From IMG/VR virus record IMGVR_UViG_3300010354_000006: a stretch of DNA of 45,220 nt; one strand, given 5' to 3'. Under the pieces are notes generated by a model. That model was given only the letters and a program-made list of their open reading frames with translations. It did no database searches and was not told where the DNA came from. The stretch comes from a virus. Positions 8,478 through 29,322 of this stretch are shown piece after piece (position 1 is the stretch's first letter; each line of letters starts with the position of its first letter). The position numbers were made by a program, and so were the translations under genes.

Positions 8478-8524
8478 CCAAACTTTAAACTCAATAAGGT
8501 AAAAGAAAAGAGTACAACTTAATC

Positions 8525-8560
8525 AGCCCTGCTTGCCCCCAGCTTTGCAGGGCTTTTATT
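8525..8560 (+). terminator. Rho-independent terminator closing the plus-strand block
   Basis: 8-bp stem AGCCCTGC/GCAGGGCT followed by TTTTATTT. Confidence 0.55.
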
Positions 8561-8702
8561 TATAAAGAGCGGTATAATTAAAATAACAGTAGCCGCCTAG
8601 CCTCTGTCTGTTTACAGGTATGCTCAAATAGAGCGGCTCTTTTATTTTTGTGCTATATTAATTCTTGAACCTCTTAAACAAGGTTTTTTCCTTCCTTCAC
8701 AA

Positions 8703-8745
8703 AAGCACTAGGTTTTTTCAATTTTTCCCCTAGTGCTTTTTTTTA
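8703..8745. terminator. Bidirectional terminator between convergent blocks
   Basis: 10-bp stem AAGCACTAGG/CCTAGTGCTT followed by 8 T on plus strand and TTTT on minus strand. Confidence 0.55.
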
Positions 8746-9273: not shown

Positions 9274-9310
9274 ATAGGATAGCTTTCTTTTTAATAAAAA
9301 TCAAGGCTTG

Positions 9311-9616
9311 TTACCTTTCTCTCTGTCTTTCTTCTTTTAAAAACTCTTTAAAATTATCCTTAAGCTCATTTAAAGCAGCAATAACCATGCGAAAATTCTC
9401 TTCAATTTTAATTGTTGATTTTTCTAAGCCTTTAATATCTTTGCCCTGTTCATCAGTCCTAACTTCTAAAGCTAAAATCTTTTTATCTAAAACTTTTAAT
9501 TGTGGCTCTATGACTAAGTTGTAAAAAATAATAAGTACAGTTAATTCACCACCAATGATTGAACCAACAAGCATTAACAATTCATAGGATTTAAAGATGT
9601 ACTCTGTTTCCGTCAT
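9311..9616 (-). CDS. Membrane-anchored coiled-coil protein (101 aa)
   Basis: N-terminal hydrophobic helix then charged helical region. Confidence 0.45.
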   Translation of the reverse strand: MTETEYIFKSYELLMLVGSIIGGELTVLIIFYNLVIEPQLKVLDKKILALEVRTDEQGKDIKGLEKSTIKIEENFRMVIAALNELKDNFKEFLKEERQRER

Positions 9617-10449
9617 TTTAATACTACAGTAACACCGATTTGCTCTTCTGCTTTACCCGATAAGAAAACTTTTAATAAACCGCCTTCAACTTTAACTAAA
9701 TAATTTAAATTCTCAGGATTAACAGGTAATGAAGCACCATTCGTGTTAGACTTTATTCTGTTTTCGCCTAAAAGATTTTGTATTAAGACTCTCAGCTCAG
9801 CATCAAAAAAAGTACCTTGAGACCCCATAGCTGTAATTTGAATTAAAGCTTTGTAGTTAGACTGCTTTAATTCAAATGCTGCTACTTGGGTAAGCTCGCT
9901 GCTAATTAAAATTGTTTCTTTTGTCGGATATTCAGCACCATCTTTACCCTTTTCGCCTTGCTCGCCCTTCTCCCCTTTCTCGCCCTTTAAATCCCCTAAA
10001 TTATTTTTCCATTCTTCAAATAAAGAAGCTAATTCTTTTTTCGCAAAATCATAATCAAATTCTGCATTTAAGCCATCTTTACCATTAATGCCATCTTTAC
10101 CATCTTTACCATTAATGCCATCTTTACCATTTTTGCCATTAACACCATTCTTGCCATCAAGACCATTCAAGCCATCTTTGCCATCAAGTCCGTTTAAACC
10201 ATCCTTGCCATCAAGTCCGTTTAAACCATCTTTGCCATCAGCTCCATTTAAGCCAGCTTCCCCTTGCTCGCCCTTGTCGCCTTTTTGACCCTTGAGCTTA
10301 TCTACTTTTTTCGCTAAAAGCTTTTCAACTTCTTGATTGAAAACGTCTAAAACCCTTTCTTTTAAAGGCTCTTTAAATTCTTCGCTAAATAGTTCACCTA
10401 TTTGAACTAGTCTGTTTTCTATTTTTGCTGCACCCGCTCCGCCTAACAT
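9613..10449 (-). CDS. Collagen-like repeat protein (Gly-X-Y), probable tail fibre
   Basis: Long run of G-X-Y triplets (GKDGLNGLDGKDGLNGLDGK...) encoded by tandem DNA repeats at about 10080-10260. Confidence 0.65.
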   Translation of the reverse strand: MLGGAGAAKIENRLVQIGELFSEEFKEPLKERVLDVFNQEVEKLLAKKVDKLKGQKGDKGEQGEAGLNGADGKDGLNGLDGKDGLNGLDGKDGLNGLDGKNGVNGKNGKDGINGKDGKDGINGKDGLNAEFDYDFAKKELASLFEEWKNNLGDLKGEKGEKGEQGEKGKDGAEYPTKETILISSELTQVAAFELKQSNYKALIQITAMGSQGTFFDAELRVLIQNLLGENRIKSNTNGASLPVNPENLNYLVKVEGGLLKVFLSGKAEEQIGVTVVLK

Positions 10450-12772: not shown

Positions 12773-13555
12773 ATGTCTTATAATAAGAACATGAGTTTAT
12801 CTAACCTGTTAGACAAGATAAAAAAAATCCCAGTTCTTAAGAAAAACGAAGAAGAAGAGTTGGCTTCTTGGTTTAATTCCAATGAATTAGCAAGACCAAT
12901 TTATGAAAAGATTTTAATTTATCATAACTTAAGATTGGCTAGGCATATTGCAAATAGATTTATAGACAGGGGTTATGAGCTAGAAGATTTAATTTCAGAA
13001 GCTGTTACAGGTTTAAAGCGTGCTGCTGAAAAGTTTAATCCAAAACTAGGCTATAGATTTAGCACTTACGCTGGGCAATGGATTAACCAACGAATCCAAA
13101 AGTTTATTCAAACTTCTTCAACGATTAAAATTCCCGTATTGAAATATTACGCAATTCAAGAGCTGCATAGCCTACTTAATGTTGAACCACTAGAGACTAT
13201 TAGAGAAAAATTAAAGCTTTCAAAAAATCAATTTAATAAATTATACCAAGCCTACTCAAGCCAATTAGTTGAGTCTATAGATGTACCTTTGAATGACCAT
13301 GAATTAATTAAAGAAAGTATCCCTTTTGCCTCAAAAGAATATGATGATCTTTCGGAAAATTTAGAATACTTCTTATCTCAAATCCCCAAAGATGAATACC
13401 CTATAGTCCTAAGTTATCTAAATCAAGAGTTTACTAAAAATAAACTATGCGAAATTTATAACTTAACCTTTATTGAATTAAATCAAATACTGAACCGCAA
13501 TGTAACCTTCTTAAAAGAATCTTTGCGAGGGGATTACGAAGCCTTAAGACTTTGA
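12773..13555 (+). CDS. Sigma-70 family RNA polymerase sigma factor
   Basis: Region 2 signature ...AAEKFNPKLGYRFSTYAGQWINQRIQKFI... (FSTYA.WWI.Q consensus) and a C-terminal helix-turn-helix-like segment. Confidence 0.75.
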   Translation: MSYNKNMSLSNLLDKIKKIPVLKKNEEEELASWFNSNELARPIYEKILIYHNLRLARHIANRFIDRGYELEDLISEAVTGLKRAAEKFNPKLGYRFSTYAGQWINQRIQKFIQTSSTIKIPVLKYYAIQELHSLLNVEPLETIREKLKLSKNQFNKLYQAYSSQLVESIDVPLNDHELIKESIPFASKEYDDLSENLEYFLSQIPKDEYPIVLSYLNQEFTKNKLCEIYNLTFIELNQILNRNVTFLKESLRGDYEALRL

Positions 13556-13902: not shown

Positions 13903-14172
13903 TTAACACTTCCATCTCTTTCTAGCCTTGCAAATCCTTTTTTCAGGGGTTTTAGAACAATCAATATTAAAGTCGTTCATTTGCCCTTTGCTTCTAGCAC
14001 AGTATGATTTCTTCCTAGCTCCGCCTTGTGGTTGAGGTGCTTGCAAGTTAGAACCTGTAGCTGCATTATAAGCTTTACGCCCTTTTTCTGTCAAACCGCC
14101 TTTATTAGATTTATGCTCTTTCTTGAAATTAAAGTTTTCTTTAGCTACTGCTTTGCCTTTATTTGGTTTCAT
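13903..14172 (-). CDS. Small strongly basic Lys/Arg-rich protein (89 aa)
   Basis: Composition read directly. Confidence 0.45.
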   Translation of the reverse strand: MKPNKGKAVAKENFNFKKEHKSNKGGLTEKGRKAYNAATGSNLQAPQPQGGARKKSYCARSKGQMNDFNIDCSKTPEKRICKARKRWKC

Positions 14173-14420
14173 TTCAACCCTTCTAACGCTGCTACCAAAG
14201 CGTTTTTTAAAGTCTCAGGGATTTTACCTGTTTGAAGATCTAACTCAACCTGAGCTTTAATCAGAGACAGATCTTCTTCCGTCAAACCTTCATCATCCAA
14301 GATATAAAGCTCTAAAGCTTTAGACTCTAAAAAATATTTATTCGCTATGTCGAAAAGTGGCGTACCGATTAAAGTCCTTACCAAATTTTTCATTCTAATT
14401 CTATATAACCCTTCTGTCAT
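14169..14420 (-). CDS. Hypothetical protein (83 aa)
   Basis: ORF track. Confidence 0.4.
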   Translation of the reverse strand: MTEGLYRIRMKNLVRTLIGTPLFDIANKYFLESKALELYILDDEGLTEEDLSLIKAQVELDLQTGKIPETLKNALVAALEGLK

Positions 14421-16105
14421 AATAAACCTAAAGCTCCGTTATCATTTAAACTCAACAATGTACTTGATAAAGCCATTCCTACGTACTCCCTTTGAGAGCC
14501 AGATAAACCTAAACCGCCATTAGGGCTTACGTGGTAAGCTTGTCCTGGGATTAGTCCAGAAGCTACCTGAGTACTATAACCCGAGTACATTGAGGATAGA
14601 TTAACTTTTTTTGTCTGCCCCGTAGTTCCAGATTCTGCTGCTATACCTACAGGTAAAGGGTTTGGCAGTACCCTGTTCCCGTAAACATATAATACGGAGA
14701 ACTGAACTGTAGAGCCAAATGTATTATTAATTACGACAAGTATAGGTGTATTAACCGCTCCGTTTTTAACTATGTAGTTTTTACTGTATGATTGGTAAGA
14801 ACCAAATCCGAAAGAGGATACATTGGAATAATAGTTTTGCGAAAAACTTTTTAGTTGTCTCTGCCCTATTCTTGTTACATCTAACAGTAGAGAATTTCTA
14901 TAAATTAAATCCCCGTTTATATTAAGCCTCCAGCCAGCATTAGCCAGAACAGTAGCATCAGGAAATCCGAAACTGTTCTGTCCATCTACTTCTGTAATAG
15001 TAGTTGAATTTACTGTAACTAAACGGGATTGAACACCTCCAGACTGCCCTAGAAATAAATATAGTCCTGAACTTATAGGTTCTACACTAAAACGTCCGTT
15101 AGCATCAGTTCCATAATATAAGTATTCTGCACCAGACCCTGAAAAAGCGGTGCCTGTAATGCCTCGACATAGTATAGCGGTGTCAGTGGATCCGCCTTTG
15201 CGATAACCAAAAAAGCAATTGTTGTTAGTTACATCGTGATAAAACCCTGTATCTTCAGTCGTAGCGGTCTGCCCGTTGTCTGTACCTACTCCAAGTACAG
15301 ACCCAAAAGTCATAGTAGTACCTGATACAGTACCTAAACATGCCTCGTAAGAAGAAGATCCAGCACTGTCTGTCGAATAATAAATAATGTGTTGCCCAGA
15401 TATAGTATCTACAGATAAACCTCTAATCCTACCTCTATCGTTAGTGCTTCCAGAGGCTACTATGTTGTTAGCTGAACCTACTGATATAGAAGTACCTGTT
15501 AAAGTTAAAACTCTTGTCTGTAAAGATGGGCTATCTGATCTAGCATAAACCGCTACTGCAACAGTCCCTGAATGTTTATTTATGCCGAAAGAAGTATTTC
15601 CTGAAGCTGTATTAGATACGTTAGTTGCTACCGATACCGCTGAGCCTACTGTAGGGTTAGCCCCAGATACGTCTATAGCTAAAGCACTTAGTGTATTTGT
15701 TGCTGATCTATACAGCAAAACTGCTGTAGAAGCACCTACTTCAATAAGCTTAGAGCCTAAAGGGGCTGTACCCCACGCTATACCTGTAGCTAATTCTGTA
15801 CTCCAAGTAATATCGCCTGTATTGGGATTTACAGCACCAGTTTTGATAAAGATATTCGTCCCGTTAGTATAAGCGTAAACAAGCTTATTGGTTGTTTCAT
15901 GGAAGCATATAGCACCTTTACCAGTGAATGACGGGAATAGTCGTAAATCTGCAAGTAGATCACCGTTGAGCGGTCTGCCTACTGGAGTTTTAAAAACTTG
16001 TCCATTAGCAGATAAAATTAAAGAATCCCCAGTGTTTACGTTTTCCCCTAGTACGAAATTATGCGAAGTTTTTCCGCTGCTGAATAAATCACTTGCACTT
16101 GCCAT
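14417..16105 (-). CDS. Putative tail fibre / tail spike-like protein (562 aa), Ser/Thr/Gly-rich
   Basis: Composition and position. Confidence 0.45.
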   Translation of the reverse strand: MASASDLFSSGKTSHNFVLGENVNTGDSLILSANGQVFKTPVGRPLNGDLLADLRLFPSFTGKGAICFHETTNKLVYAYTNGTNIFIKTGAVNPNTGDITWSTELATGIAWGTAPLGSKLIEVGASTAVLLYRSATNTLSALAIDVSGANPTVGSAVSVATNVSNTASGNTSFGINKHSGTVAVAVYARSDSPSLQTRVLTLTGTSISVGSANNIVASGSTNDRGRIRGLSVDTISGQHIIYYSTDSAGSSSYEACLGTVSGTTMTFGSVLGVGTDNGQTATTEDTGFYHDVTNNNCFFGYRKGGSTDTAILCRGITGTAFSGSGAEYLYYGTDANGRFSVEPISSGLYLFLGQSGGVQSRLVTVNSTTITEVDGQNSFGFPDATVLANAGWRLNINGDLIYRNSLLLDVTRIGQRQLKSFSQNYYSNVSSFGFGSYQSYSKNYIVKNGAVNTPILVVINNTFGSTVQFSVLYVYGNRVLPNPLPVGIAAESGTTGQTKKVNLSSMYSGYSTQVASGLIPGQAYHVSPNGGLGLSGSQREYVGMALSSTLLSLNDNGALGLL

Positions 16106-16107
16106 AA

Positions 16108-16830
16108 TTAAACTCTCCCTATAGGCGTTATCGCCACATCCCAGTTAGTACCATTACTTGTAATTTCATAAATAGCGTTTATATCCATCGTGAAATTAGC
16201 TGCATCTCCTGCTATTTGCTCTGAGCCTGCTCTTACTAAGGTTGATGGAGTAGCTGTAAAATCTTGCCCTATTGCTGGTTTCACCCTAAAATTAATTGTT
16301 GCAGTTGGCGAAGGTAACTGAACATTTAATCCAGTATTAATAGAATATTGCCCTTTATCAGTAGCGTTAAAGTTAATAGCTTTAGTTTCCCATGGCGTAA
16401 ATGTTCTTGGGTCAGTCCAAGTACCGTTACCCTCTAGCCATGTCGCAGCAGTACCACCAGCAGGAACATTACCAGCAGTAAAAGCCACACTTTGAACATA
16501 GCCTTTAGAAGCTACTTCGGTATCACTAGAGCCATCTGCATAACGTACCTTCCCCGAGCCATTGCAGTCTAAAACTATATCGCCATTTAAAGTAGCTTCA
16601 TTAATCACATTAACTGCAATCGTTGTAAAAGTTTGCAAAGCAGTATAAACACTAGCCACGCCAAGTTGTGGCATTTGATCTGCTATTACATTATTTAAAG
16701 TTATTAATTGACCAAGTAAATAAGAAAAGTTACCATTTGCATCAACTGCATCAATAAAATTACCAGCACCATTAGTAAACGTAGTTAATGAGCTGGATGA
16801 TGGAGTTGTTAAATCGCCTTTAGTTGCCAC
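16108..16830 (-). CDS. Putative fibre-associated structural protein (240 aa); GTG start
   Basis: ORF track; start codon is GTG at 16828-16830. Confidence 0.4.
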   Translation of the reverse strand: MATKGDLTTPSSSSLTTFTNGAGNFIDAVDANGNFSYLLGQLITLNNVIADQMPQLGVASVYTALQTFTTIAVNVINEATLNGDIVLDCNGSGKVRYADGSSDTEVASKGYVQSVAFTAGNVPAGGTAATWLEGNGTWTDPRTFTPWETKAINFNATDKGQYSINTGLNVQLPSPTATINFRVKPAIGQDFTATPSTLVRAGSEQIAGDAANFTMDINAIYEITSNGTNWDVAITPIGRV

Positions 16831-16852: not shown

Positions 16853-19800
16853 TTAATAGCCTCTCAACTCTGCAAGTTGTTTTTCTCTCAATTTTTTCTC
16901 TTTAGCTGCTCTGTCTTTTTGCTTTGCTTCAATCGCATTTTCATATTGCTTTCTACCAGCAGGACTCCACGCATATAATGTTTTACCAGCGATAGGAATA
17001 TTATTCACTAAAATCCTAGACAAGAAAGGATTATATTCTTCGCCTGTATCTACTGCCTTCCTGTATTCTTTTACATCGGCATCTAACGCATCAAGCCATG
17101 GAGCTGCAGGCATAATAAAGCTTCCAAACCCTGCCGCTAAACCTTGCTTATCTAACTTGTAAAACATATAAGGATTTACTATTGGTATAAATGTTTGAAA
17201 AGCTGCCTCAACCGCTCTCTCTTCTAAAGATTGATATTCTTCGCTTGTTTTTCCTTTGATTATATCTTTAAAATAATTAATTCCATAGTTTGAACCACCA
17301 ACTAAAACACTAAGAGCAATAGCGTTTCTTAGGGATTCGCCTAATTGTTTAGTGTTTTGTTTGTTTAATCCTTTAGTTGCAATAGATTTAATCCCATTTG
17401 CCATACCACTGTAGACTTCATCTTTAGTGAATTGAAGCATTTTTAAACTAAAGCTTTTTAACGCATAAAAGAATCTTAGGTCTGGAGCTTGTAAGTATCC
17501 AGCAGGCATATCGCTTAAAGATAAAACTTGCGTTCCTGAAAGGCGTTCAAATAAAGCAAGCCCAATGCTATCATCGTCATACGCTTCTTTTAAATCTTTA
17601 GTACGAAAAGCTTGTACCATTCTATCGGCTTCATCTACCCCGAACATGCTTTTTAAATAAGAATATTCTTTATCGAACTTCGCACCTTTTTCTTTTGTAA
17701 AAACATTTTTAAAATAATTAAATCCTGCATTTAACTGTGTTTCTTGCATTAATTTATTCGCTGCCCTAAAACCGTTTATCTTCAAAGCAAAATCAACAAC
17801 TTTACGAACCACGGAAGGATTATCAGCATAATCCGCACCGATACGGGCAATGCCTAAGTCTAAGGTTTTTACAGTCTCAGGGTCAAATGATTGCCCTAAA
17901 CCTTTAATAGTATTCAAAATACCATTCCTATAAGCACTAGTGCCAAGCTCCGTAGCCTGTGTTATTGTACTTTGAATATCATTCAGAGCAGTAAGCAATG
18001 CTCCGTCTTTAGCTAAACGAGCAAAATTAGCTGGCTTTTTAGGACCATTAACAAAACGTGCTGTAAGTAAATCCTTAACCTTAACAACTTGTTCACTTGA
18101 GATTTCATTGTTTTGTCTTAGACTATCTGTAAAAGCACCGACACTTGTAGTTAAATCTGCACCATCCGCTCTACCAAAGAATTTACGACTCTCTATGTCA
18201 AAAGTAGAGCGATTAATATAATTCTCTAATACTGTAGCTGGGTCTTCGTATAAGTCAGAAAGAAAACGCTCGTTCCCTTTAGCATCCTTAAAAATAATCC
18301 CTTCCATCTGTTGAGCCAATCCCGATCTAGGTTTTCTGTTAGAAAGTGTTGGGGTGCTGCCTACTCCACCGTAACCTCTTAAAAACTTATTAGTAAACTC
18401 AATTCGCTCTAGCTCCTCAAGTTCACGCCCAAGTTTTTTTCTTTCTTTAGCTAAAGCTGTATCGTATTCTGTCCTTGTTGCTGGATCAGCTTTTAAATCA
18501 TCTGTGATTTTATCTAAATCAAAAAGTGAACGCCAAGTCTCAACGCTATCTTTTTTAACACTTGTTGGGAAATAATTTTCAATAAAACCTACTTCAAGCC
18601 CCGCTTCGGTTTGTTGTGCATAAAGATCATCAAGGACAGGTCTAACCCCTGTTTCGTATAGTTCCGTTAAAGGTTTATTTATTAATTTCTCAAAATCTCT
18701 TGCGGTGTCTTCCGCCTCTAAAAATTTTAAAGGTACTTTAAATATTGGTGGCAGTTCCTTAAACTGTCGCCCTTCTTTATCAATCTTAGATAAGAAAGCC
18801 ATGATTGCATCATGGTCGCCTTTAATTAAATAAGAGTTAAAAATTTTCTTTTCATTTTTGCTTAATAATTTCCCTAACTTGCTGAATAAAGGCATTGCTT
18901 GAGATAAATGTTTATTTGCAATTTTTGAACTTGCAAATTCAAACTTGCGAAGCTGCCCTGCTAAAGATGGGTTAATGTCTCTTAAAGCTGATATTATTGG
19001 TTGTACTAAAGTATTCCATAAGTTCCCCGCATTTTCAGCAGTTTGAATAATTTTGTTTTTAGGTTTTTTAGTTGCAGTTGGCATTTCCACAGAAGCATCA
19101 CTAATGAAAGCTCCAGTATTTTCAACTTCCGCTTTCCCTACTTCACTTTTCATTTTTGCTATTAACGCTGGATGGCGGTACATCGCTTTATACATATCGT
19201 TTAAAGCTTCTTTTTCTAATTCAGCTCTTGAGATTGTTTTTTCTTCGGTCTCTATAATCGGGTTGCGTTCTGCCTTAAGCTTTGCTAACTGAGAATCAAT
19301 TTGATCTAATTCCTCTTTAGCAATCATTCGATCAATTTCGATATCATCAGCATTACGCAAAACAGGAGTCTCTATTCCCATCTTCTCTCTGTATTCTCTT
19401 AAAGCATCTTTCTTAAATTGACGATTTAAAGCTACTTCTTTTTGTTTCTTTAATGCCTCTCTACGCCTATTTAAATAATCTATCTTATCTTTAACTTCCT
19501 GCTCAAGCTTTTGCTGTTGCTCTAATAAAGCTTGTTTCTTGGCTTGAAAGTCAGATACAGCTTGATTTCTATTTGCATTAGTTACACTAAGCCTAGTATC
19601 TACATCTGATCTAGCTGCATTGTATTCGTCATCTAATGCTTTAAGTCTCTGTTCTTTAAGTTGTTGCTTTTGTAATTCTATGTCTTGCAAACGCTTTGTT
19701 TCTACATCTGCTTTTAATTGATTTATTTCAGCTTGCTTTGCTTCTAATGCTTGTTGTTGTTTTGTCTTTACAGTCTCTATTTGCTTTGCTACTGTTTCTT

Positions 19801-22468
19801 GTAGTTTTTTTAATTTCTCTGGGTAAGTTTTATTTTTAAATTTATTTAATTGCTCTTGTATTTTATTTCGTTGTTCCTCTGCTTTTTTTAAAGATGGGTT
19901 ATCTAAAATAGGTTTTAATGATTCTTTTTGCTGTAAAAGAGATTCAAGGTTTGCTTTTTCTTCTTTTAGCCCCGATTCAAGTTTTCCAATCTTTTCTTTT
20001 GCAAAAGATTTAATATTCGCTATCTTTTTTTGAGTTGCTTCTTTTACTTGATATTTATATTTACCAAGTGCAATGTTCGCCGTTTTAATACTTGGGATTG
20101 CATTTAGCTCTTCTTGCGTTAAAGACTCCCCTGATTTACTACGCTTATCTCGTCTTTTTTGTTTTAAAGCATTAACTTTATCTTCTTGTGCTTTTAATTG
20201 TTGCTCTGCTTTAGTTTTTACTACTTCAATTTGACGATTAGCCGTTTCGTTTATTTCTTTTAATTTTTGTGCATAAAGTTTTTTAGAAGCATCTAGTCTT
20301 TTTTTTGTTGCAGTTATTATTTTCTCTGTTTCATCAAATTTCTCTAACGCCCCTTCTTGCAGGAAATCACGTTTAATTTTATTGTAAGCAATATCAGCTT
20401 CCTCAGAAGCCTCTTCTAATTTTTGCAATTCAAGCTTTAAGGCATCAATTTTTTTTGTTATAAAAACTTTAATATTTTCAACCTTAGTTTTAACTTCGGA
20501 ACTTAAATCTTTTTGAAATTTGTTAAATGAAATTTTATAAGTAGGATCAAGTTTATTTAATTGCTGTTCTGCTAATTCTGTTTGCTTTGCCTTTAAACTT
20601 TTTTCAAAATCAGCTTGAGATGCCGTTAGTTTACTAGCGACCTGCTCTTCAGTTTGCTTAACTGCTTGAGAATATTGACCTTCTAGTTTTTGATTGTTTC
20701 TTTCTAAGCTTTGTAATCTATTTTCAAAATATTGCTTAACTCGTTTTGCTTTTTTTTCTTTACTTACCGAGTCTGGTAAGTTATTAATTTCATCAAGCGA
20801 TTTAGAATACTCTGCTTTAGTTTGTTCAATTTCACGTGCGTAAGATTCTTGCTTCTGTTTAAATTTAATATCAAGTTCTGCAATTTTTGTTTGCCTAGAT
20901 TCTTCTAGCTGAGTTTTTAAACTTTCGTATTTAGTATTTGTTTCTTTTTGAAAAAGATTAAATTCTTCTTCGTAATTTCTTTGTGGTGCCGTTGCTGTTT
21001 CTTGGGAAACAGTTTCGGGAGTTTCAGTGATTTCTACAGGCTCCGTCTCAGCTTGTTTTTTAGCACGTTGATAAGAGTCATTAACTTGCTTCTGTTGTTT
21101 AGCTAAATTCTTTTCTTCTAAATCAAATGGCTTAGTTAATGTACGCTCTTGCTTGTCTATATCAGCTTTCTGTTTAAGCAGGTTTTTTGTTTTCTGTTCA
21201 CTTTCTCTTTGGATTTCAGATACTAATTTATCTTGCTCTGTGTCTATCTGCTTGAAAGCTGTTTGCTTTTCAGCTTCGTACATCTCATTTAAAGTAGATA
21301 CATTCTGCCTAGTCTCTTCTTTAAGCCCTAAACGTGTTTGCTCTTCTGCTAATTGCCCTTGCCTTTGTTCTGTCAAAGACCTAGCTTGCATTAAATCAGA
21401 TTCAATCTTTTCGTATTTTAATGCTGCTGCTGCTTTTGCTTCTTCTGCTGCCCTTGCTTCGTTAGCACCTTTAGCCTTGTATGCTTCTACATTACGTCTA
21501 TTAAATGCTCTTTTTGTTTCAGCTATACCCTTTAAAGATTCTTTACTATTGCCCCTAAAGATAAAGCCTTCTTGCCCTTGAGCCATTCTGCCCGCTTCTC
21601 TTAAAGCTTGCTTGCCGTAATTTTTGGTTAGTGCTGCTCCAATACCTTCTATCGCTCCACCAAACGTAGTATCTATAGCTAAATTTAGAGCTAAGTCTTT
21701 AAGGTTAATGTTCCCCTCTTCGTCCATTGAAGCCGAGAGAGACAATGGAGAACCTGCTATTGTGTTAGCTGCTGCACCTGCTATAAATCTTTTAGTTCCT
21801 GCTTGTGCTATAACTTTTTTAGTTGCTTCTCGTGCTGCTGTGCCTGCAATCCCTTTAGCTGTTAAATCTTTAAATATGTTTGCCGCTAAAGCACCTTCGC
21901 TAGCTGCTCCAAAAGCTTTAGCATAAATTGACCCACCTCCGAGTAACCCAACTACTGTACCAAGTCCAGTAGGTAAATCTTGGAATCCTTGCCCTTCTTG
22001 TATCCCTGTAACATCACTTGCTAAATCTTGTATGAATTGACCAGTTTGAGCTAGACCTTGAGATACAGGGTCTAACTCTCTCTTAACCCTCTCCCTGCCT
22101 GCAAAAGTATCCATCATTAATTCTGCTGGAGATGGAATAGCTTTAGATGCTCCGTATAAAGCTTTAGGAGCTTCTAACATTAAAGCTGGAATCTCTGCTG
22201 CTGATTTAAGCCCTGCTGCTATTGTCTTGCCAGCTATAGGAATGCTTTGTATTGCATCTGCTATGGCTTTTTTTGCATAAGCTCCTGAATTGATACGGTC
22301 AGGGGTTAATTTGCTTGCTGCAAATTGTAATTCATCTGGAGTTAATTCACGTCCAATATCGTCTTGATAACGAGTTAAAGCTGCCTCTGTGTATTTAACA
22401 GCCTGATCTTTTAAAAGTGGATTTATACTTTTAGCTTTTAAATCTTCAATAAAATTTTCAATTCCCAT
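16853..22468 (-). CDS. Very large virion protein (1871 aa) with long central coiled coil; internal/ejection protein or tape-measure-like
   Basis: Uninterrupted 5.6-kb ORF; central Lys/Glu/Gln-rich heptad region. Confidence 0.55.
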   Translation of the reverse strand: MGIENFIEDLKAKSINPLLKDQAVKYTEAALTRYQDDIGRELTPDELQFAASKLTPDRINSGAYAKKAIADAIQSIPIAGKTIAAGLKSAAEIPALMLEAPKALYGASKAIPSPAELMMDTFAGRERVKRELDPVSQGLAQTGQFIQDLASDVTGIQEGQGFQDLPTGLGTVVGLLGGGSIYAKAFGAASEGALAANIFKDLTAKGIAGTAAREATKKVIAQAGTKRFIAGAAANTIAGSPLSLSASMDEEGNINLKDLALNLAIDTTFGGAIEGIGAALTKNYGKQALREAGRMAQGQEGFIFRGNSKESLKGIAETKRAFNRRNVEAYKAKGANEARAAEEAKAAAALKYEKIESDLMQARSLTEQRQGQLAEEQTRLGLKEETRQNVSTLNEMYEAEKQTAFKQIDTEQDKLVSEIQRESEQKTKNLLKQKADIDKQERTLTKPFDLEEKNLAKQQKQVNDSYQRAKKQAETEPVEITETPETVSQETATAPQRNYEEEFNLFQKETNTKYESLKTQLEESRQTKIAELDIKFKQKQESYAREIEQTKAEYSKSLDEINNLPDSVSKEKKAKRVKQYFENRLQSLERNNQKLEGQYSQAVKQTEEQVASKLTASQADFEKSLKAKQTELAEQQLNKLDPTYKISFNKFQKDLSSEVKTKVENIKVFITKKIDALKLELQKLEEASEEADIAYNKIKRDFLQEGALEKFDETEKIITATKKRLDASKKLYAQKLKEINETANRQIEVVKTKAEQQLKAQEDKVNALKQKRRDKRSKSGESLTQEELNAIPSIKTANIALGKYKYQVKEATQKKIANIKSFAKEKIGKLESGLKEEKANLESLLQQKESLKPILDNPSLKKAEEQRNKIQEQLNKFKNKTYPEKLKKLQETVAKQIETVKTKQQQALEAKQAEINQLKADVETKRLQDIELQKQQLKEQRLKALDDEYNAARSDVDTRLSVTNANRNQAVSDFQAKKQALLEQQQKLEQEVKDKIDYLNRRREALKKQKEVALNRQFKKDALREYREKMGIETPVLRNADDIEIDRMIAKEELDQIDSQLAKLKAERNPIIETEEKTISRAELEKEALNDMYKAMYRHPALIAKMKSEVGKAEVENTGAFISDASVEMPTATKKPKNKIIQTAENAGNLWNTLVQPIISALRDINPSLAGQLRKFEFASSKIANKHLSQAMPLFSKLGKLLSKNEKKIFNSYLIKGDHDAIMAFLSKIDKEGRQFKELPPIFKVPLKFLEAEDTARDFEKLINKPLTELYETGVRPVLDDLYAQQTEAGLEVGFIENYFPTSVKKDSVETWRSLFDLDKITDDLKADPATRTEYDTALAKERKKLGRELEELERIEFTNKFLRGYGGVGSTPTLSNRKPRSGLAQQMEGIIFKDAKGNERFLSDLYEDPATVLENYINRSTFDIESRKFFGRADGADLTTSVGAFTDSLRQNNEISSEQVVKVKDLLTARFVNGPKKPANFARLAKDGALLTALNDIQSTITQATELGTSAYRNGILNTIKGLGQSFDPETVKTLDLGIARIGADYADNPSVVRKVVDFALKINGFRAANKLMQETQLNAGFNYFKNVFTKEKGAKFDKEYSYLKSMFGVDEADRMVQAFRTKDLKEAYDDDSIGLALFERLSGTQVLSLSDMPAGYLQAPDLRFFYALKSFSLKMLQFTKDEVYSGMANGIKSIATKGLNKQNTKQLGESLRNAIALSVLVGGSNYGINYFKDIIKGKTSEEYQSLEERAVEAAFQTFIPIVNPYMFYKLDKQGLAAGFGSFIMPAAPWLDALDADVKEYRKAVDTGEEYNPFLSRILVNNIPIAGKTLYAWSPAGRKQYENAIEAKQKDRAAKEKKLREKQLAELRGY

Positions 22469-23316
22469 TATTGTGGTAAAAGTCGATCTAGGTTAGTTAC
22501 TGGCTTAAGTGATGATCTTCTTGAAGCTTGTGTAGTATTTACTGGAGCTGCACTTTGTTGATTTTTCTTAATTTCCTCTTTCGGTCTTGCTACTCCCATT
22601 CCACCGAGTGGAAAGCCATAGGTTTGTCTAAAAGCAAGAGCCTCAGGGGTTAATGCTTTTACTGGAGTACGGAATAATCCTGTACCTAAAAATCCAGTGT
22701 CTCCCTTCTTGTAAGTTGTAACAGTTTGTTTTGGAATAGAAACGCCACGTCCCACTAAAGCCGCAATATCTTCTCTTGGTAAGTCAGAGTCTATTCCTTT
22801 GTCCAAGATATAAGCCTTCCAATTTTTTTCTTTGGTTAATAAACCTTCCGCCTGCTTTTGATTCAATTTAACGGAAGTAGGCAACTCTGGTTTGCCACCC
22901 CTTCCACCACTGCGACCCGTTTCAGGGGATAATCTTTTCATTCTTTCTTTGCGATCATATTCTAATTCAAGTATTTCTTTATCTGCTCCAAGATCAAGTC
23001 CGTGCTTGTAGTTTTCTAAATCCATTCGATTCCCTTGCTTAACACCTTCAAGCCCCATTAACGCTGCATATTTTGCCGCCATCTCTTGTTGGTCTAAATC
23101 GCTTTTTAAAAGAGTAGTACCAAGCTCATTTAACTCGCCAGTAGTAGGGTCTACTAATTGGCTATACTTGTCATAACCTAAGCCGCCTAAAGCTTCTTTT
23201 AAAGCTTCTGCTCTTTGTTTCTTAATCTCTTTTTCAGCGTATTCATCGTAAGCATTGCTAGCTCCACCGATTGCCCCTGCTAAAATTCCCCAGCCTCTAC
23301 CGCCTAATTTCTGCAT
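22468..23316 (-). CDS. Putative internal virion protein (282 aa)
   Basis: ORF track; Gly-rich N-terminus. Confidence 0.45.
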   Translation of the reverse strand: MQKLGGRGWGILAGAIGGASNAYDEYAEKEIKKQRAEALKEALGGLGYDKYSQLVDPTTGELNELGTTLLKSDLDQQEMAAKYAALMGLEGVKQGNRMDLENYKHGLDLGADKEILELEYDRKERMKRLSPETGRSGGRGGKPELPTSVKLNQKQAEGLLTKEKNWKAYILDKGIDSDLPREDIAALVGRGVSIPKQTVTTYKKGDTGFLGTGLFRTPVKALTPEALAFRQTYGFPLGGMGVARPKEEIKKNQQSAAPVNTTQASRRSSLKPVTNLDRLLPQ

Positions 23317-23318
23317 AA

Positions 23319-24500
23319 TTAAAACCCTCCTGTTTGAATCATCCTTGGAGTTGTTTGTATTTTAGCCAAGTTGGTACCACGTGTATCTTGCCTGCCAGCT
23401 TGATCTTTTAAGCCACCATAAATAAATTCAGCAGCAGCAGGATCAGTGAAACCACCATAAGCTGTTGGGGAAACAATACCAGAAGTTAAACTACTAAATC
23501 CACCTGAACCTAATTGAGCTCCAGCACCAAGTAAATTTCTAAATGATTGCCCTCTACGTGCAGCACGAGCATTTAATATATCTTGCCTCATCCCTGCTTG
23601 GCTTGCTTCTAAATCTACTATATTTCTACTTAATGGGTCAAATGCCCCACGCTGTAAAGCTTGATTCGATAAACTAGAAGAACTAAATCCACGCTGCGTT
23701 AAATCGCCCATTGTTCTTTGGAGATCATCTCTTAAAGTTTCTTGAACTCTCCTTCTTCCTAGTGTGTATTGAGAATCTAAATCTGCTTGATCTTGAGCCG
23801 TTAAACCTTCTTGATCCATTGATCCAGTAAGGTTAGAAAAATAATCTCTTAAATTTTGTTTATACTCTAATGCACCTTTAACATCTTCACCGATTAAAGA
23901 TGTTAAATCTCCCATCTCACTGAAAATATCACCAGTGTTTTCTATCCCTTGCCCTCTTAATTCATCAGATGGAGTTGTTAAAAAAGGCTCTTCTTCTGCT
24001 ACTACATATTTCCCAGTAGCAGGATCATATTTATAACCGCCACCAGTCAAGGCTTCCTTGACTAAACCCCTACCCTTTTTGCCAAGCTCACCTTGTCTAA
24101 ATCTTTCAATAAAAGCTTTTTGTTGGGCAGGAGTTTTTGATTGGAAATCTGCCGACTCAGCAATAGCTCTAATCTTGTCATCTTGTCTTTGCTTTCTTGT
24201 TTGTGGGGTTAAACTTCCAATCCCAACCCCTGAACCAGAAGCCACGCCACCTCTAAGGATGTCGCTTCCTCTTTTGAAACCTTGGTTAATATCACTACGC
24301 CCTTTGTTGATATCTGCTTCTGTAATTCCTGATGTGAACTTTGGAGCAGCTCCACCGATAGCACCCTCAGCCGCACCGCCAAGAACACCAGCAACAATCC
24401 CACCAGCTGGACCGGCTACCGCAGTACCAATACCAGTAGCAATAGCTGAACCAACGCCCTTAGTCTTAATATTTGCCGAAGAATTAGCAATTTTAGCCAT
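23319..24500 (-). CDS. Putative internal virion protein (393 aa), Gly/Ala-rich hydrophobic N-terminus
   Basis: ORF track; composition. Confidence 0.45.
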   Translation of the reverse strand: MAKIANSSANIKTKGVGSAIATGIGTAVAGPAGGIVAGVLGGAAEGAIGGAAPKFTSGITEADINKGRSDINQGFKRGSDILRGGVASGSGVGIGSLTPQTRKQRQDDKIRAIAESADFQSKTPAQQKAFIERFRQGELGKKGRGLVKEALTGGGYKYDPATGKYVVAEEEPFLTTPSDELRGQGIENTGDIFSEMGDLTSLIGEDVKGALEYKQNLRDYFSNLTGSMDQEGLTAQDQADLDSQYTLGRRRVQETLRDDLQRTMGDLTQRGFSSSSLSNQALQRGAFDPLSRNIVDLEASQAGMRQDILNARAARRGQSFRNLLGAGAQLGSGGFSSLTSGIVSPTAYGGFTDPAAAEFIYGGLKDQAGRQDTRGTNLAKIQTTPRMIQTGGF

Positions 24501-24517
24501 ATATATTAAGTATAATC

Positions 24518-26167
24518 CTACTCTTTGCCTATGGTTTGAAAATCTATAACAATAGAATCTATAATTACATCTTCGCTATCAGAAGTATGCTCAATAAATA
24601 ACTTTAAATACTTGCCCGTTGGGTTTGCTGGAGTAAATTTTTTAGATATGATTGGCAGTCCTGCACTAGATAGCCATATATCAACACCCCACTCAGCTTC
24701 ACCCCAAAAGCTATTTGGTAATGCAGGGATTTGAACATCCTCTGAGCCAGAAGCACCATTCTCCCAAGTATGTTTTATTTTTACTGTTGTACCGCTAGTA
24801 GAACGTGCATTAACCGTAATATTCGTAATTTGTTTAGTATTGTTTGGTTGCCCAAAATCCAATGTCGCTAACTGATATATAGACTTGATTGCATTTCCGT
24901 TAAAATTAAAACCTTTGTTTGTTTGCAAAAATGCTTTATCTGTTACTATAACCAACTCATTGGTAACTCTATCTAAATAAAATGATCTTAACTTTAATAT
25001 GTTTTCGTCTTCGTCAAACTCTTTAATTAAACTCCACGTTTCGCTAGCAGGTTGATCTCCATAACTTAATACTAAAGCTTGGTCAGGGTATCGTTTTGTT
25101 GTTTTACTTGGAAACCAAAACTGTAATTCACCTTTTAAAGGAAAATTAATTAACCGTCCTCTCTTAAAAACTTCATTATCATATTGCTGCAAAAGAGGAA
25201 ATATCTTATGCGTTAGACCAAAAGGTTTAGCATCTTGGAAATTATCGGTACTTGATAGCTGGAAAATTCGCCCTTGATTGCTTACAAAATAATGGTCATT
25301 GTCGCCTTTAGCTTGAACTAAATATTTACTTAAACACCCTAACTCACTGTTTAAAACTTCAAAAGAAAAATGAGGTTGAGGATAAGCCGTACCAGGGGGA
25401 TTAATTCCCTGCACTACTACGATTTGATTATCACAGTAAACAATTAAATTTTTGTTTGATAAAACTTTTAAAGCTACACTAGGTCTAACTACGGGCATAT
25501 CAACAAAGAAAGCAATATCAAAATCTAACGGGTCATTGGAAGAAAAATTTGATATGTCCCCGATTTTAGAAACATACAGCCTGCGTGGGTTAAAAGCATC
25601 TCCACCTAGCCATATTCTGTTAGCGTGAAATGCTGCGATTGAGGGAAACCCTACCGTACTAGCGACTGGATTCGCTGCTGTGGCGTAAGGGCTTTCATCT
25701 AAATTCCCAGAAGCATTATTATCATTAGTATAAACAGGCGGCCATGTAACTGTAGTTACTGTTTTTTTATAAATATATCTTGGTGCATTTGCTCCATCAA
25801 CTAAAAAATATCCACCGTTAGCTTCTACTCCAATCGGCTCACCAATACTATGCAGTCCAGTCCCGATTATTTCATAAGCTCCAGATACAGGATTAATTAA
25901 ATAAATATTCGGATAACTAACACCGATGATTGAATAATTTAAATCATCATCAGTATATACGTCTACATAATCCCAGCTAATATGACTAGGGAAAGAAAAC
26001 TCAAAAAGATTTTCAAAACCATTAACCTTTTGTAGCCCTGTCTGTGTAACAATTTCAAAGTTATAAGCTCTTGGGGTTTCGTTTAAAGGTAAAGCAATTT
26101 CAGCATCGCGGAGATTTAAACCACCGCTAAAATCATTTATTAGTAGGGTTTGTGTGGCTTCTACCAA
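24518..26167 (-). CDS. Putative tail tube / nozzle structural protein (549 aa)
   Basis: Size and position downstream of capsid genes. Confidence 0.4.
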   Translation of the reverse strand: MVEATQTLLINDFSGGLNLRDAEIALPLNETPRAYNFEIVTQTGLQKVNGFENLFEFSFPSHISWDYVDVYTDDDLNYSIIGVSYPNIYLINPVSGAYEIIGTGLHSIGEPIGVEANGGYFLVDGANAPRYIYKKTVTTVTWPPVYTNDNNASGNLDESPYATAANPVASTVGFPSIAAFHANRIWLGGDAFNPRRLYVSKIGDISNFSSNDPLDFDIAFFVDMPVVRPSVALKVLSNKNLIVYCDNQIVVVQGINPPGTAYPQPHFSFEVLNSELGCLSKYLVQAKGDNDHYFVSNQGRIFQLSSTDNFQDAKPFGLTHKIFPLLQQYDNEVFKRGRLINFPLKGELQFWFPSKTTKRYPDQALVLSYGDQPASETWSLIKEFDEDENILKLRSFYLDRVTNELVIVTDKAFLQTNKGFNFNGNAIKSIYQLATLDFGQPNNTKQITNITVNARSTSGTTVKIKHTWENGASGSEDVQIPALPNSFWGEAEWGVDIWLSSAGLPIISKKFTPANPTGKYLKLFIEHTSDSEDVIIDSIVIDFQTIGKE

Positions 26168-26530
26168 TTACTTACCCCTTCTAAATTTATTATAAAATCG
26201 TGGATCTACGCCTTGCGGTGTTGGGGTTTCATCTTTTAAGATTTGCCCCGTTCCCATATCCATAAAATAATTTCCTACCCAATCCCTGTTTGGCATTCCT
26301 TCTTTCCAATACTTAGACTGCCTAGAGAAAGTTTCATGGTTGGGTAATTTATATTCATCAGTAAAGTGCATTTGATTGTCATAGGCACTAACGTCTTGAT
26401 TTGATTTACCTTTTAAAATTTCATTTTCAAAATAACCTTGCATATCGTAATCGTCAGAAAGAGGAACACCAAAAGCCTTAGCCCATGTATCAAAAAGGTA
26501 TTTTTTTATTTCATCCCTTTTGTTTACCAA
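26168..26530 (-). CDS. Hypothetical structural protein (120 aa)
   Basis: ORF track. Confidence 0.4.
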   Translation of the reverse strand: MVNKRDEIKKYLFDTWAKAFGVPLSDDYDMQGYFENEILKGKSNQDVSAYDNQMHFTDEYKLPNHETFSRQSKYWKEGMPNRDWVGNYFMDMGTGQILKDETPTPQGVDPRFYNKFRRGK

Positions 26531-27234
26531 TTCCTATCCCTTGATCTAACTCTAAATTTCCTACGACCTTTAATCTTTAAATTAAACTTGTTTTTAATAA
26601 TTGCTTTATTTAATGCCTCTTTTGCATCCATATCTAAAAGCTGTCTCCATTCAGGATCGCCTTTAGTTTTTCTTAACCATGCGTGAGTTGCCAAAACTAA
26701 AGCCCTTTGAAAGCTAGTAGGGAAAATAATATTATTTGCTATATTGCTCGCTGTAATTCTAAGCATTTCATAATTGTAAAAAGCTTGAATAGTATAAGCC
26801 GCATCAGGAACAGGAGCTAAATTAACTACTCCCTCGTCAATATAATAATAAAGCGGTCTGCCTTGGTTAGTGTTAATAAACTCTAATTCTTTGCCTTCTG
26901 TCTTAGAACGAGGTAAAATCTCAGAATAGTTTTCTCCTGCTTCAACTAAAACTAATTTAGTTATTAACTGAGGATCCCAGCCGCCTACTGGAGCTGTTAA
27001 AACACTATTGCCTAGTGTAGCTGTTAGATTTTCTACAGGATTATAAAAATCATAATCAGAAGAAGATTCTAAAACCCACTGTACCGCTTGGTTTACGGCT
27101 TGAATACCTTTTAAAGCATTGCCGCTTGTCGCAGATGTTGCTTCAATTAAAGGGATTGGAGAATCAGCCTCCAATCCCCTAGCATCGTTTAATAAATTAA
27201 GATACGTTATTGGCAGTTTTTTGCTCCTCTTCAA
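26524..27234 (-). CDS. Putative head-tail adaptor / tail protein (236 aa)
   Basis: Position only. Confidence 0.35.
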   Translation of the reverse strand: MKRSKKLPITYLNLLNDARGLEADSPIPLIEATSATSGNALKGIQAVNQAVQWVLESSSDYDFYNPVENLTATLGNSVLTAPVGGWDPQLITKLVLVEAGENYSEILPRSKTEGKELEFINTNQGRPLYYYIDEGVVNLAPVPDAAYTIQAFYNYEMLRITASNIANNIIFPTSFQRALVLATHAWLRKTKGDPEWRQLLDMDAKEALNKAIIKNKFNLKIKGRRKFRVRSRDRNW

Positions 27235-28053: not shown

Positions 28054-28086
28054 AAGAGAGAGGGTTTCCCCTCTCTTTTTTTTCTA
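28054..28086 (-). terminator. Rho-independent terminator immediately after the capsid gene stop
   Basis: Stem GAGAGGGG/CCCTCTCTC with T-rich tract on the minus strand. Confidence 0.5.
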
Positions 28087-29322
28087 TTAGATAGCCACTA
28101 GGTTATTTCTGTAACCTAAAGTCCATGGAGCTTTTACGCATTCTGTAAATGTAGTACCATATTTTTGTTTGATTCCATCACCATCTTCAAATGGAGTACC
28201 AACTTTCTCAAACATTCTCATAACATTGATGATTACGTTATCGTTCATTTGAGGAATGTAAATTACTTCATTGTCTCCAATACCATCAGAAACAAGAGCA
28301 TTTAATTTACAGCCATTAACAAGCATGTGGTAAGCTTGCGATGAACCTAAACCGCCATCAGCGTTTTGTGCGTTTTCTCTTTGGAAACGAACTTGAGATT
28401 GTAAAGCAGATAAGCCATTCTCTGATACATACATATCAATTTCAGTTAGATCCGTTGGTCTAGTAAATACTTTAGGGCCTTGTAATGCTCCACGATCTCT
28501 GAGAGCGATTACGTCAGCTTCTACAGTAGCCTCAGTTAAGCTCGCACTACCACCAGTAACCGTGTATCCACCACCGTTTTCAATGTAGAATTTCACGCCA
28601 CCTGCTTGAGCGCCAGTACCAGAAGTTCTAGTAAAACCATCTGCGGTTAATGGGTTTGAACCCTCTAAGCGAATATCCTTAAGTGCTTTTCTTTCAAGCA
28701 TACGGATTATAGTAGGAAGTAAATTTTCTTCTTGGTTGCTAAAATCCAACTCATTGATACCAGCGTAATTGAATTTACCATTTGCTACTGGACCAGCGAT
28801 TTGAATGTCGTGGAAGAAATTAGAGTAGAAATTGTAATCAGAACCTGCTAATGCTACGTCATTATTTGCCCCGAAACCATCACCAATCTCGCCTGATCTA
28901 TCTGTGAATAGTTGCGTTCCAGAAGCCAAGCTTGTTGGGTCAGAGTAGCCACTTAAAAGCTGAACAGTTAAACTTGTAAATGTTCCATTCACTCCAGTGA
29001 TTAACCACTTTGCACTACCAGATTGATTAACTAATCTTGTTACCCCTGGCTTAATTTCAGTATCAAAAGGGTTAGCTCTTGTCGGTGCGTTTACTGTTAT
29101 AGTTGTAGCACCTGCTGAATAACTACCAGATAAAGTTAATACACCCCTTGAAATTGCTTGTTGAAACCATTGAACTTTAGAACCCATTTTGCTCACAGTT
29201 CTCATGTGTTTCATCAAGAAAGGCGCTCTAACTCCAGAGGTTTTAATGATGTCCGATTGGACATCTTCCATATACGTTCTTGCATCGTTAATTGAAAGAA
29301 CACTATTAATTGGGTTTACCAT
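28087..29322 (-). CDS. Putative major capsid protein (411 aa)
   Basis: Position after scaffold-like gene, size, AAGGAG RBS, followed by terminator; fold not verifiable by eye. Confidence 0.5.
   Translation of the reverse strand: MVNPINSVLSINDARTYMEDVQSDIIKTSGVRAPFLMKHMRTVSKMGSKVQWFQQAISRGVLTLSGSYSAGATTITVNAPTRANPFDTEIKPGVTRLVNQSGSAKWLITGVNGTFTSLTVQLLSGYSDPTSLASGTQLFTDRSGEIGDGFGANNDVALAGSDYNFYSNFFHDIQIAGPVANGKFNYAGINELDFSNQEENLLPTIIRMLERKALKDIRLEGSNPLTADGFTRTSGTGAQAGGVKFYIENGGGYTVTGGSASLTEATVEADVIALRDRGALQGPKVFTRPTDLTEIDMYVSENGLSALQSQVRFQRENAQNADGGLGSSQAYHMLVNGCKLNALVSDGIGDNEVIYIPQMNDNVIINVMRMFEKVGTPFEDGDGIKQKYGTTFTECVKAPWTLGYRNNLVAI

Follow-up and report, generated by a model that had tools for sequence, protein, structure and literature searches.

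Three consecutive genes of an uncultured short-tailed phage, ending in a giant of 1871 residues, as a probable internal-virion (ejection) protein block

The stretch of DNA examined here, called the window throughout, is 45,220 nt long and comes from an uncultured virus (IMG/VR record IMGVR_UViG_3300010354_000006). Three consecutive genes on its minus strand, encoding proteins of 393, 282 and 1871 amino acids (aa), are probably the internal-virion (ejection) protein block of a short-tailed phage, and the 1871-aa giant would be its component of the gp16 or internal virion protein D (IVP-D) type. This reading is supported by the podovirus order of the genes and by the likeness of the fold predicted for the C-terminal domain of the giant (C-dom) to predicted internal virion proteins. 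It is further supported by a related locus in which the C-dom gene follows weakly gp13-like and gp14-like genes, and by relatives whose proteins carry enzymes that act inside the host. An earlier note, made from the letters of the window, had likened the three proteins to an ejection or internal-core module such as T7 gp14-gp16 or the ejection proteins of P22, and the same lines of evidence speak for that likeness. The features on which the argument rests are as follows.

26524..27234 (-): SU10-type head-to-tail adaptor, 236 aa; Pfam PF24175 SU10_adaptor, E 1.2e-7, 32.8 bits against a curated cut-off of 27
24518..26167 (-): nozzle-like tail protein, 549 aa, immediately upstream of the module; PHROG 5107 (3.3e-14), 376 'tail protein' (2.4e-7) and 15566 (6.2e-5)
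23319..24500 (-): candidate small internal-virion (ejection) protein, 393 aa and rich in Gly/Ala; its gene comes next after that of the nozzle-like protein
24369..24458 (-): putative membrane-inserting segment of the 393-aa protein, residues 15-44, GVGSAIATGIGTAVAGPAGGIVAGVLGGAA, 30 uncharged Gly/Ala residues
22468..23316 (-): 282-aa protein, second candidate ejection protein
16853..22468 (-): 1871-aa giant, candidate IVP-D/gp16-like ejection protein
21449..22468 (-): residues 1-340 of the giant, Gly/Ala-rich N-terminal region with uncharged stretches at residues 165-183 and 228-248
19088..21448 (-): residues 341-1127 of the giant, charged Lys/Glu/Gln-rich helical region of variable length
19649..20548 (-): internal duplication of ~150 residues within that region (residues 641-790 against 791-940), each copy about the size of a two-helix unit; z up to 9.4 in Smith-Waterman comparison with shuffles
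16856..19087 (-): C-dom, residues 1128-1871 of the giant (744 residues), predicted all-alpha

All three open reading frames (ORFs) start with ATG and are present exactly as the earlier note described them. Between the 393-aa and 282-aa genes lies a 2-nt gap. At the next junction stop codon and ATG run into each other as TAATG, an overlap that suggests translational coupling of the 282-aa gene and the giant. The genes belong to a long late operon on the minus strand. Its upstream part holds TerL (phrog_2 match, 6.7e-28), a 756-aa protein, a coiled-coil protein that gene order would place as the scaffold, a 411-aa capsid candidate, a 268-aa protein, the SU10-type adaptor and a 120-aa ORF. These are followed by the 549-aa nozzle-like protein, the three genes of the module and then fibre-like genes. 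The 756-aa protein has a weak match to T7-type connector PHROGs (8.9e-7), confined to its C-terminal ~80 residues. The late genes scanned include none recognisable as coding for a tail tube, sheath, tail-assembly chaperone or baseplate. Because an SU10 adaptor and a nozzle-like protein are present and long-tail genes went unrecognised among those late genes, the layout is, as judged from the sequence, that of a short-tailed phage (podovirus). Comparison of the nozzle and adaptor families of the window with their T7, LKA1 and RIO-1 counterparts by hhalign gave nothing.

The conserved part of the giant is C-dom, in which the motifs NYFP(R/T), IExRKFFG, Q..D and MPxxYL...R.FY.LK are found; NYFP, IExRKFFG and MPxxYL are invariant. 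Weakly hydrophobic stretches lie at residues 1715-1733, 1755-1770 and 1775-1792, and a Lys/Arg-rich tail is also present. A word-indexed search of 5.8 billion proteins with C-dom returned only three relatives. The first is a close homologue, partial in extent and shorter in its helical region, and the other two (P0002 and P0003, ~1,280 aa) have only C-dom in common with the giant, at 23-24% identity over ~710 residues (BLASTP 2e-37 and 4e-37). A profile search run exhaustively over 1.84 billion cluster representatives yielded 2,928 clusters at E<=1e-3, of them 2,142 at E<=1e-30; the clusters are metagenomic and defined at 50% identity. Across the family the domain measures ~650-740 residues. 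In nearly all of the best 150 of the 2,928 clusters the domain stands at the extreme C-terminus, in proteins mostly of 950-3,200 aa. IMG/VR holds 54 C-dom loci, with proteins of 955 to 3,432 aa. The longest of these (L023, 1835-12133) has an N-terminal part of 2,722 residues, and other representatives reach up to ~3,190 aa (P0128), with SNF2, Eco57I or GGDEF domains.

What precedes C-dom differs strongly within the family. Among 22 long members scanned against Pfam, ART-PolyVal was found in 10, and LPD1, LPD5, SNF2 with Helicase_C, Eco57I methylase and GGDEF domains also occur. C-dom itself has no Pfam match at E<=1 and no PHROG family. A tblastn search of 50,697 GenBank phage records gave no match for the giant, for the 955-aa member of locus L021 or for P0017, and P0002 was matched through its ART domain only. 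Two giants reached through ART, those of Octadecabacter BD virus 1 and Limnohabitans DC33, were considered as family members and rejected; they lack C-dom. Ten matches were found among 185,579 species genomes, all of them contigs of metagenome-assembled genomes (MAGs) from bins mostly labelled Proteobacteria, and none is an isolate. Since all ten are MAG contigs, no reliable host can be taken from them. These results indicate, at the level of sequence, that C-dom delineates a large and previously unannotated family, so far in uncultured phages.

The fold of C-dom connects it with internal virion proteins. Its AlphaFold2 (AF2) model is all helix, with a predicted local distance difference test score (pLDDT) of 78.4 and a predicted TM-score (pTM) of 0.79. 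Foldseek comparison of this model with BFVD, a set of predicted viral structures, gave 47 matches at E<=1e-3. The best match is a member of the C-dom family (2e-19, TMq 0.66), followed by proteins of Aeromonas PS (4e-8), LIMElight (3e-7), RSB3, LKA1 (gp48; 5e-6, TMq 0.46), BB8, Acibel007, Cota and CB5A. LKA1 gp48 is the gene at the gp16 position of that phage. The named matches are almost all annotated as 'internal virion protein C/D', 'internal core protein' or 'protein inside capsid D' and come from Autographiviridae and similar podoviruses; proteins with 'large polyvalent protein-associated' domains and one SLT-domain protein are also among the matches. The comparison is of model against model, with predictions on both sides, and the TM-scores are modest, mostly 0.3-0.5. 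As a specificity control, the same model was compared with about 350,000 PDB chains and found nothing better than E 0.6. Since the BFVD annotations are specific and this control is empty, a chance fold match is unlikely. Structure prediction followed by Foldseek, the check proposed in the earlier note, accordingly gave a match to predicted internal virion proteins and none to a solved structure, the solved gp16 structures included.

The neighbourhoods of C-dom genes in other clades point in the same direction. There the C-dom gene lies one to three genes after proteins of the tail-tubular A/B type. In locus L001 it is preceded by genes for proteins of 263 aa, 1246 aa, 169 aa (T7 gp13, E 0.002), 184 aa (T7_gp14, E 1.3e-5) and 837 aa, an order that corresponds to the T7 order gp11-12-13-14-15-16. 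In L014 and L022 it stands three genes after tail proteins with strong phrog_394 (1e-34) and phrog_376 (6e-101) matches; a further phrog_376 match among the other clades is at 6e-91. In L021 it stands two genes after proteins of phrog_10775 and phrog_5107, the PHROGs matched by the adaptor and the 549-aa protein of the window. Two further PHROGs matched by the 549-aa protein, phrog_376 and phrog_15566, are strong matches (1e-101 and 1e-91) of the protein at the same position in other C-dom clades. An iterative search with a hidden Markov model (HMM) had also linked the 549-aa protein to proteins of 575-957 aa in another clade; this link was rejected as profile drift, because a clean hhalign gave a probability of 0.1. 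The 575-957-aa family, found in L025-L045 two genes upstream of the C-dom gene, carries a C-terminal motif 'CWVAREVYG..NP.W..FR.W' and is unrelated to the 549-aa protein.

The trio is also kept as a unit in diverged relatives. In L063 and L064 a gene of the SU10_adaptor family is followed by a nozzle-like homologue of 545-546 aa (42-54% identity) and then by the trio at the same position, with sizes of 451, 232 and 1282 aa in L063 and 369, 248 and 948+ aa in L064. A gene of ~190 aa lies between the adaptor and the nozzle-like homologue in L063 only. The 1282-aa protein of L063 falls below detection by the C-dom HMM and retains a Gly/Ala-rich N-terminus, a charged helical stretch and the motif 'EIYFPRGW'; its loss of the HMM score suggests rapid divergence of the module. 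In L064 the homologue of the giant (6757-9603) stops after the first third of C-dom, at 948 aa, and a new ORF (9619-10350) starts 16 nt further on and reaches the contig end. Either the gene is split here, or the break reflects an error in assembly or a frameshift error.

Several results weigh against the assignment to the ejection block. When an alignment of ~180 C-dom sequences was compared by hhalign with a 24-sequence alignment of LKA1/phiKMV gp16, the match was colinear over 309 columns and not significant (E 0.032, probability 1.6%). Comparisons of C-dom with T7 gp16 and RIO-1 gp37 by hmmsearch and hhalign were not significant either, and the same holds for the wider sets T7 gp13-16, LKA1 gp44-48, RIO-1 gp36-46 and SU10 gp6-24. 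The T7 gp13 and gp14 matches of L001 are under the curated Pfam cut-offs (T7_gp14, 25.6 bits against 27). No lytic transglycosylase or other muralytic domain (SLT, lysozyme, peptidase; E<=1) is detectable in any of the three proteins, in agreement with the earlier note, which had recognised no transglycosylase motif in the giant. For the 393-aa and 282-aa proteins, no link to gp14, to gp15 or to a Pfam family could be detected, and comparison of their families with the same-position families of other C-dom clades by BLASTP and hhalign, the T7_gp14-like 184-aa protein of L001 included, gave nothing. Their sizes, 393 and then 282 aa, do not fit gp14 (~200 aa) and gp15 (430-980 aa). Finally, packaging of the three proteins in the virion is inferred here, as are their ejection, their insertion into membranes and the part played by the helical array. 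As to sequence similarity, homology among proteins of the IVP-C and IVP-D kind is notoriously hard to detect and is usually missed without joint HMMs (Hardies et al. 2016, PMC4819975).

The two smaller proteins deserve separate description. The 393-aa protein is Gly/Ala-rich, as the earlier note had it (15.0% Gly, 10.7% Ala), with uncharged Gly/Ala-rich stretches at residues 15-44 (Kyte-Doolittle 1.36), 84-101 and 322-352. In the 282-aa protein a comparable uncharged segment occupies residues 8-23 (GWGILAGAIGGASNAY). The N-terminal segments of both are weakly hydrophobic, unlike classical transmembrane helices, and fit predicted membrane-inserting segments. Homologues of the 393-aa protein comprise 25 at 75-89% identity together with P0248 (41%) and P0249 and P0250 (34-37%), always at the same gene position. 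Homologues of the 282-aa protein are confined to the same phage lineage and gene position, with 30% identity to the 248-aa protein of L064. No Pfam match was found for either protein, T7_gp14 included (E<=1, 20 family members), and the 282-aa protein has no PHROG match; the 393-aa protein has a single weak PHROG tape-measure match (E 0.0016) in a low-complexity region. Both are lineage-specific orphans. A one-to-one assignment of the 393-aa protein to gp14 and of the 282-aa protein to gp15, implied by the earlier note, could not be demonstrated, both being orphans of unfitting size. Position, conservation of the trio and uncharged Gly/Ala segments suggest that they are ejection proteins.

The giant as a whole contains 11.6% Lys, 9.6% Glu and 6.4% Gln, and has no PHROG or Pfam family match and no enzymatic or known effector domain. 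The earlier note had described globular N- and C-terminal regions joined by a very long Lys/Glu/Gln-rich coiled coil. The globular C-terminus is upheld by the C-dom model. The N-terminal 340 residues (28% Gly+Ala) are not evidently globular in the AF2 prediction, in which residues 56-335 have a pLDDT of about 25-45. This region is conserved in close relatives only, and no profile relation was found to the N-termini of 111 other family members. For the middle, the composition was described correctly: residues 345-1100 contain 38% K/R/E/D, 10% Gln, 1.2% Gly and 1.7% Pro. A clean coiled coil is not supported. The hydrophobic periodicity peaks at 3.6-3.67 residues (z 5.2-6.5), against z 3.4 at 3.5 residues, and a crude heptad score is mostly no higher than that of shuffles. 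AF2 places about ten separate helices of 64-101 residues, with short breaks between them, from residue 309 to 1068; the mean pLDDT for residues 1-1140 is 54, with 70-90 for residues 500-960. On these predictions, what fits the middle best is not one rod but an array of long amphipathic helices or hairpins.

The length of this array is variable. The ~150-residue internal duplication is ancient, and no DNA-level repeat is left in the duplicated region. Close relatives have giants of 1871, 1827, 1709 or 1528-1534 aa, and all the differences are indels within the helical region. L006, P0004 and P0001 lack residues ~486-845, and L004 lacks residues ~660-805, an indel about equal to one unit of the internal duplication. 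As the length differences are all indels in the helical region, the array is a modular insert that tolerates change and occupies the position at which relatives have enzymes. The giant gene is also mosaic among the loci compared (L003-L006, P0001, P0004). L004 is ~99% identical over the coil and C-dom and strongly different in the first ~140 residues, and L005 retains the coil with a C-dom that is only ~60% identical. This mosaicism suggests intragenic recombination.

A possible course of events can be outlined from these features. The genes, lying downstream of those for the adaptor and nozzle, would be expressed together in tight coupling, and their products would be packed in the capsid, probably on the portal. 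Upon adsorption the proteins would be expelled ahead of the DNA via the portal-nozzle channel and would form a transient conduit after refolding in the envelope. The 393-aa and 282-aa proteins would act as small membrane-active components, in a role analogous to that of T7 gp14/gp15 or P22 gp7/gp20, and the giant as the large component of the gp16/IVP-D type, with C-dom as the core ejection and anchoring module of the family. The segment upstream of C-dom would be a variable slot, filled in relatives by enzymes destined for the cytoplasm and here by the helix array of ~790 residues, which would grow and shrink by two-helix units. The array and the Gly/Ala-rich N-terminus would most likely lengthen or line the capsid core or that part of the conduit which spans the periplasm; alternatively, they may be non-enzymatic 'cargo'. 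A more specific proposal, offered as speculation and with small expectation that it is right, is that the array, instead of being filler or cargo, is a modular length-setter of the ejected conduit or capsid core, an 'internal tape measure' for the trans-envelope channel. On this equally doubtful proposal, the gain or loss of ~150-aa two-helix units would tune the reach of the N-terminal membrane-active region from the C-terminal anchor. If it were true, a length-setting array would sit in the slot by which relatives slip enzymes into their hosts.

Among the other explanations, the one that fares best takes the giant as an injected cargo or effector of the 'polyvalent type', in which C-dom serves for packaging and exit only and not for channel building. 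The helix array would then have a cytoplasmic or envelope role (decoy, scaffold or nucleoid binding), and the conduit would be formed by the 393-aa and 282-aa proteins alone. ART, SNF2 helicase, methylase or GGDEF domains do occupy the same slot in relatives, and polyvalent proteins, whose repertoire is that of the domains seen in C-dom relatives, have been argued to be injected with the DNA as effectors (Iyer et al. 2017, PMC5512222). Indels of 160-340 aa are moreover tolerated in the helical region among near-identical phages, as expected of a non-architectural insert. However, the giant lacks any recognised domain of an enzymatic or effector kind, and C-dom resembles models of IVP-D, which is itself a channel component in T7 (PMC8954989). 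This explanation is held to be unlikely as a replacement for the ejection-protein assignment, and it overlaps that assignment without excluding it; N4 gp50 is both.

It is still less probable that the giant is an external tail fibre or needle with a long helical coiled-coil shaft, accompanied by the 393-aa and 282-aa proteins as fibre-attachment or assembly proteins. Directly downstream of the giant there are indeed fibre-like genes (240 aa, 562 aa and the collagen-like 278 aa), its helical region is long, and a noise-level PDB match to a short tail fibre was obtained (E 0.47). Nevertheless, its C-terminal domain is all-alpha and without a beta-rich receptor-binding module, the periodicity is non-heptad and the AF2 helices are broken, cytoplasm-acting enzymes replace the helices in relatives, and the BFVD matches are internal virion proteins rather than fibres. 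A tape measure protein that sets the length of a long tail, to which the earlier note had given equal standing, is scarcely credible: the size, the charged helical middle, the hydrophobic Gly/Ala-rich segments, the variable length among relatives and the weak tape-measure match of the adjoining 393-aa protein would fit, but the podovirus adaptor is above its Pfam cut-off, the upstream protein is nozzle-like, no gene for a tube, sheath, chaperone or baseplate was recognised in the late genes scanned, neither PHROG nor Pfam gives a tape-measure match for the giant itself, its fold matches are podoviral internal proteins, and relatives carry ART, helicase or methylase domains.

The ejection-protein assignment can also be examined against named systems. 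Proteins of the IVP-C and the IVP-D kind are all-helical with segments that score as coiled coil, and IVP-D houses lysozyme domains or ones that act in the cytoplasm (Hardies et al. 2016, PMC4819975). Like T7 gp16 and the IVP-D proteins of the phiKMV group (LKA1 gp48, LIMElight, RSB3), the giant is encoded by the last and largest gene between the tubular-tail genes and the fibre gene, is essentially all-alpha in AF2, and has weakly hydrophobic C-terminal segments and a basic tail; its C-terminal ~740 residues match predicted IVP-D models (Foldseek E 4e-8 to 1e-3). It differs in having no significant sequence or profile similarity to them and no N-terminal lytic transglycosylase, an enzyme of the T7 type only that is absent in P22 and Sf6. 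In addition, the ~790-residue helix array and the Gly/Ala-rich N-terminus replace the N-terminal half of gp16. The combination of a conserved helical ejection module with a variable, very large extra segment, in helical sequence that scores as coiled coil, is shared with phiRIO-1 gp37 (1607 aa), H66 gp60 (methylase) and N4 gp50 (virion RNA polymerase) (PMC4819975). No sequence link between the giant and gp37 was found, however, the extra segment of the giant is non-enzymatic, and in RIO-1 the order is IVP-D before IVP-C.

With the polyvalent proteins (PMC5512222), the family shares the occurrence of C-dom in proteins with ART-PolyVal, LPD1, LPD5, SNF2 and Eco57I, predicted to be injected with the DNA. 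The giant, lacking effector domains, does not combine two or more disparate effector or enzymatic domains, which define such proteins and which its C-dom relatives do combine, and C-dom is no Pfam LPD family. The P22 proteins gp7, gp20 and gp16 are likewise helical, encoded one after another downstream of tail genes, and have membrane-active segments but no muralytic domain; their sizes, however, are 229, 471 and 609 aa, and no similarity was found in family scans. Kuravirus SU10 has the adaptor Pfam family in common with the window, a sigma factor, and a terminal block (gp20-gp24, 'internal virion protein' and 'DNA injection protein') that ends in a giant, the 1473-aa gp24. In contrast, neither the three proteins nor C-dom has detectable similarity to SU10 gp16-gp24, and the SU10 block comes after the fibres while that of the window comes directly after the nozzle.

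Other features of the window include genes for fibre-like proteins on the minus strand.

14417..16830 (-): probable fibre/spike proteins of 240 aa and 562 aa, Ser/Thr/Gly/Asn-rich, directly downstream of the giant; assigned by position and composition
9613-10449 (-): collagen-like (Gly-X-Y) tail-fibre protein, 278 aa; many PHROG fibre matches, best 1.1e-22

The 240-aa and 562-aa proteins have no family match in PHROG or Pfam. A collagen-like stretch similar to that of the 278-aa protein is found in a 673-aa protein of L021. Among small genes between the fibre-like genes, an 89-aa protein (13903-14172, minus strand) has a strong DUF6321 match (2e-18). A sigma-70-family gene (12773-13555, plus strand; Pfam Sigma70_r2 6.4e-14, phrog_351 4e-35) lies on the opposite strand amid the minus-strand late and fibre genes; SU10-type kuraviruses, which have the adaptor family in common with the window, also encode a sigma factor. 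The 411-aa protein (28087-29322) is of capsid size and has no family match, and is a capsid candidate by position only. Directly 3' of its gene stands a terminator-like hairpin (28057-28076, minus strand; 8 pairs and a T-run), in a position reminiscent of the T7 terminator after gene 10. The tail and ejection genes may be expressed at a lower level by read-through past this hairpin; the counts of terminators and promoters in the region are not above chance.

The plus-strand modules at 1095-2480 and 42858-44600 encode a lysozyme, a Gam/Gp157-like protein, an ERF single-strand annealing protein (3.4e-32) and a helicase/primase-like protein with DUF3987 and DnaB-N (4.3e-41). The lysozyme (148 aa, 1095-1541, plus strand; 4.2e-12) is separate from the module, and the scanned proteins include no other recognised lysozyme. 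A scan of ten plus-strand proteins revealed no recognisable RNA polymerase, and no tRNA was found. Shine-Dalgarno-like motifs precede 34 of the 50 ORFs of the window at ~35% G+C, which argues against a host among the Bacteroidota. Over the span of the C-dom match, the window is 100% identical to IMG/VR UViG_3300010370_000070.

The module is of a known kind, that of podoviral ejection proteins with a variable giant IVP-D. No new principle is involved, as foreign domains and coiled-coil-like segments were already shown in IVP-D homologues (Hardies et al. 2016, PMC4819975). What is new is a large C-terminal domain family, of about 2,900 clusters, that is absent from Pfam and PHROGs, and a member of it whose cargo slot holds a length-variable helix array of ~790 residues. 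Of the virion proteins of short-tailed phages, the ejection proteins show the least conservation and have been annotated least. For annotation, C-dom would mark the gp16-type gene in many metagenomic podoviruses, and the family would explain where the ART, helicase, methylase and GGDEF 'polyvalent' cargo of such phages is attached.

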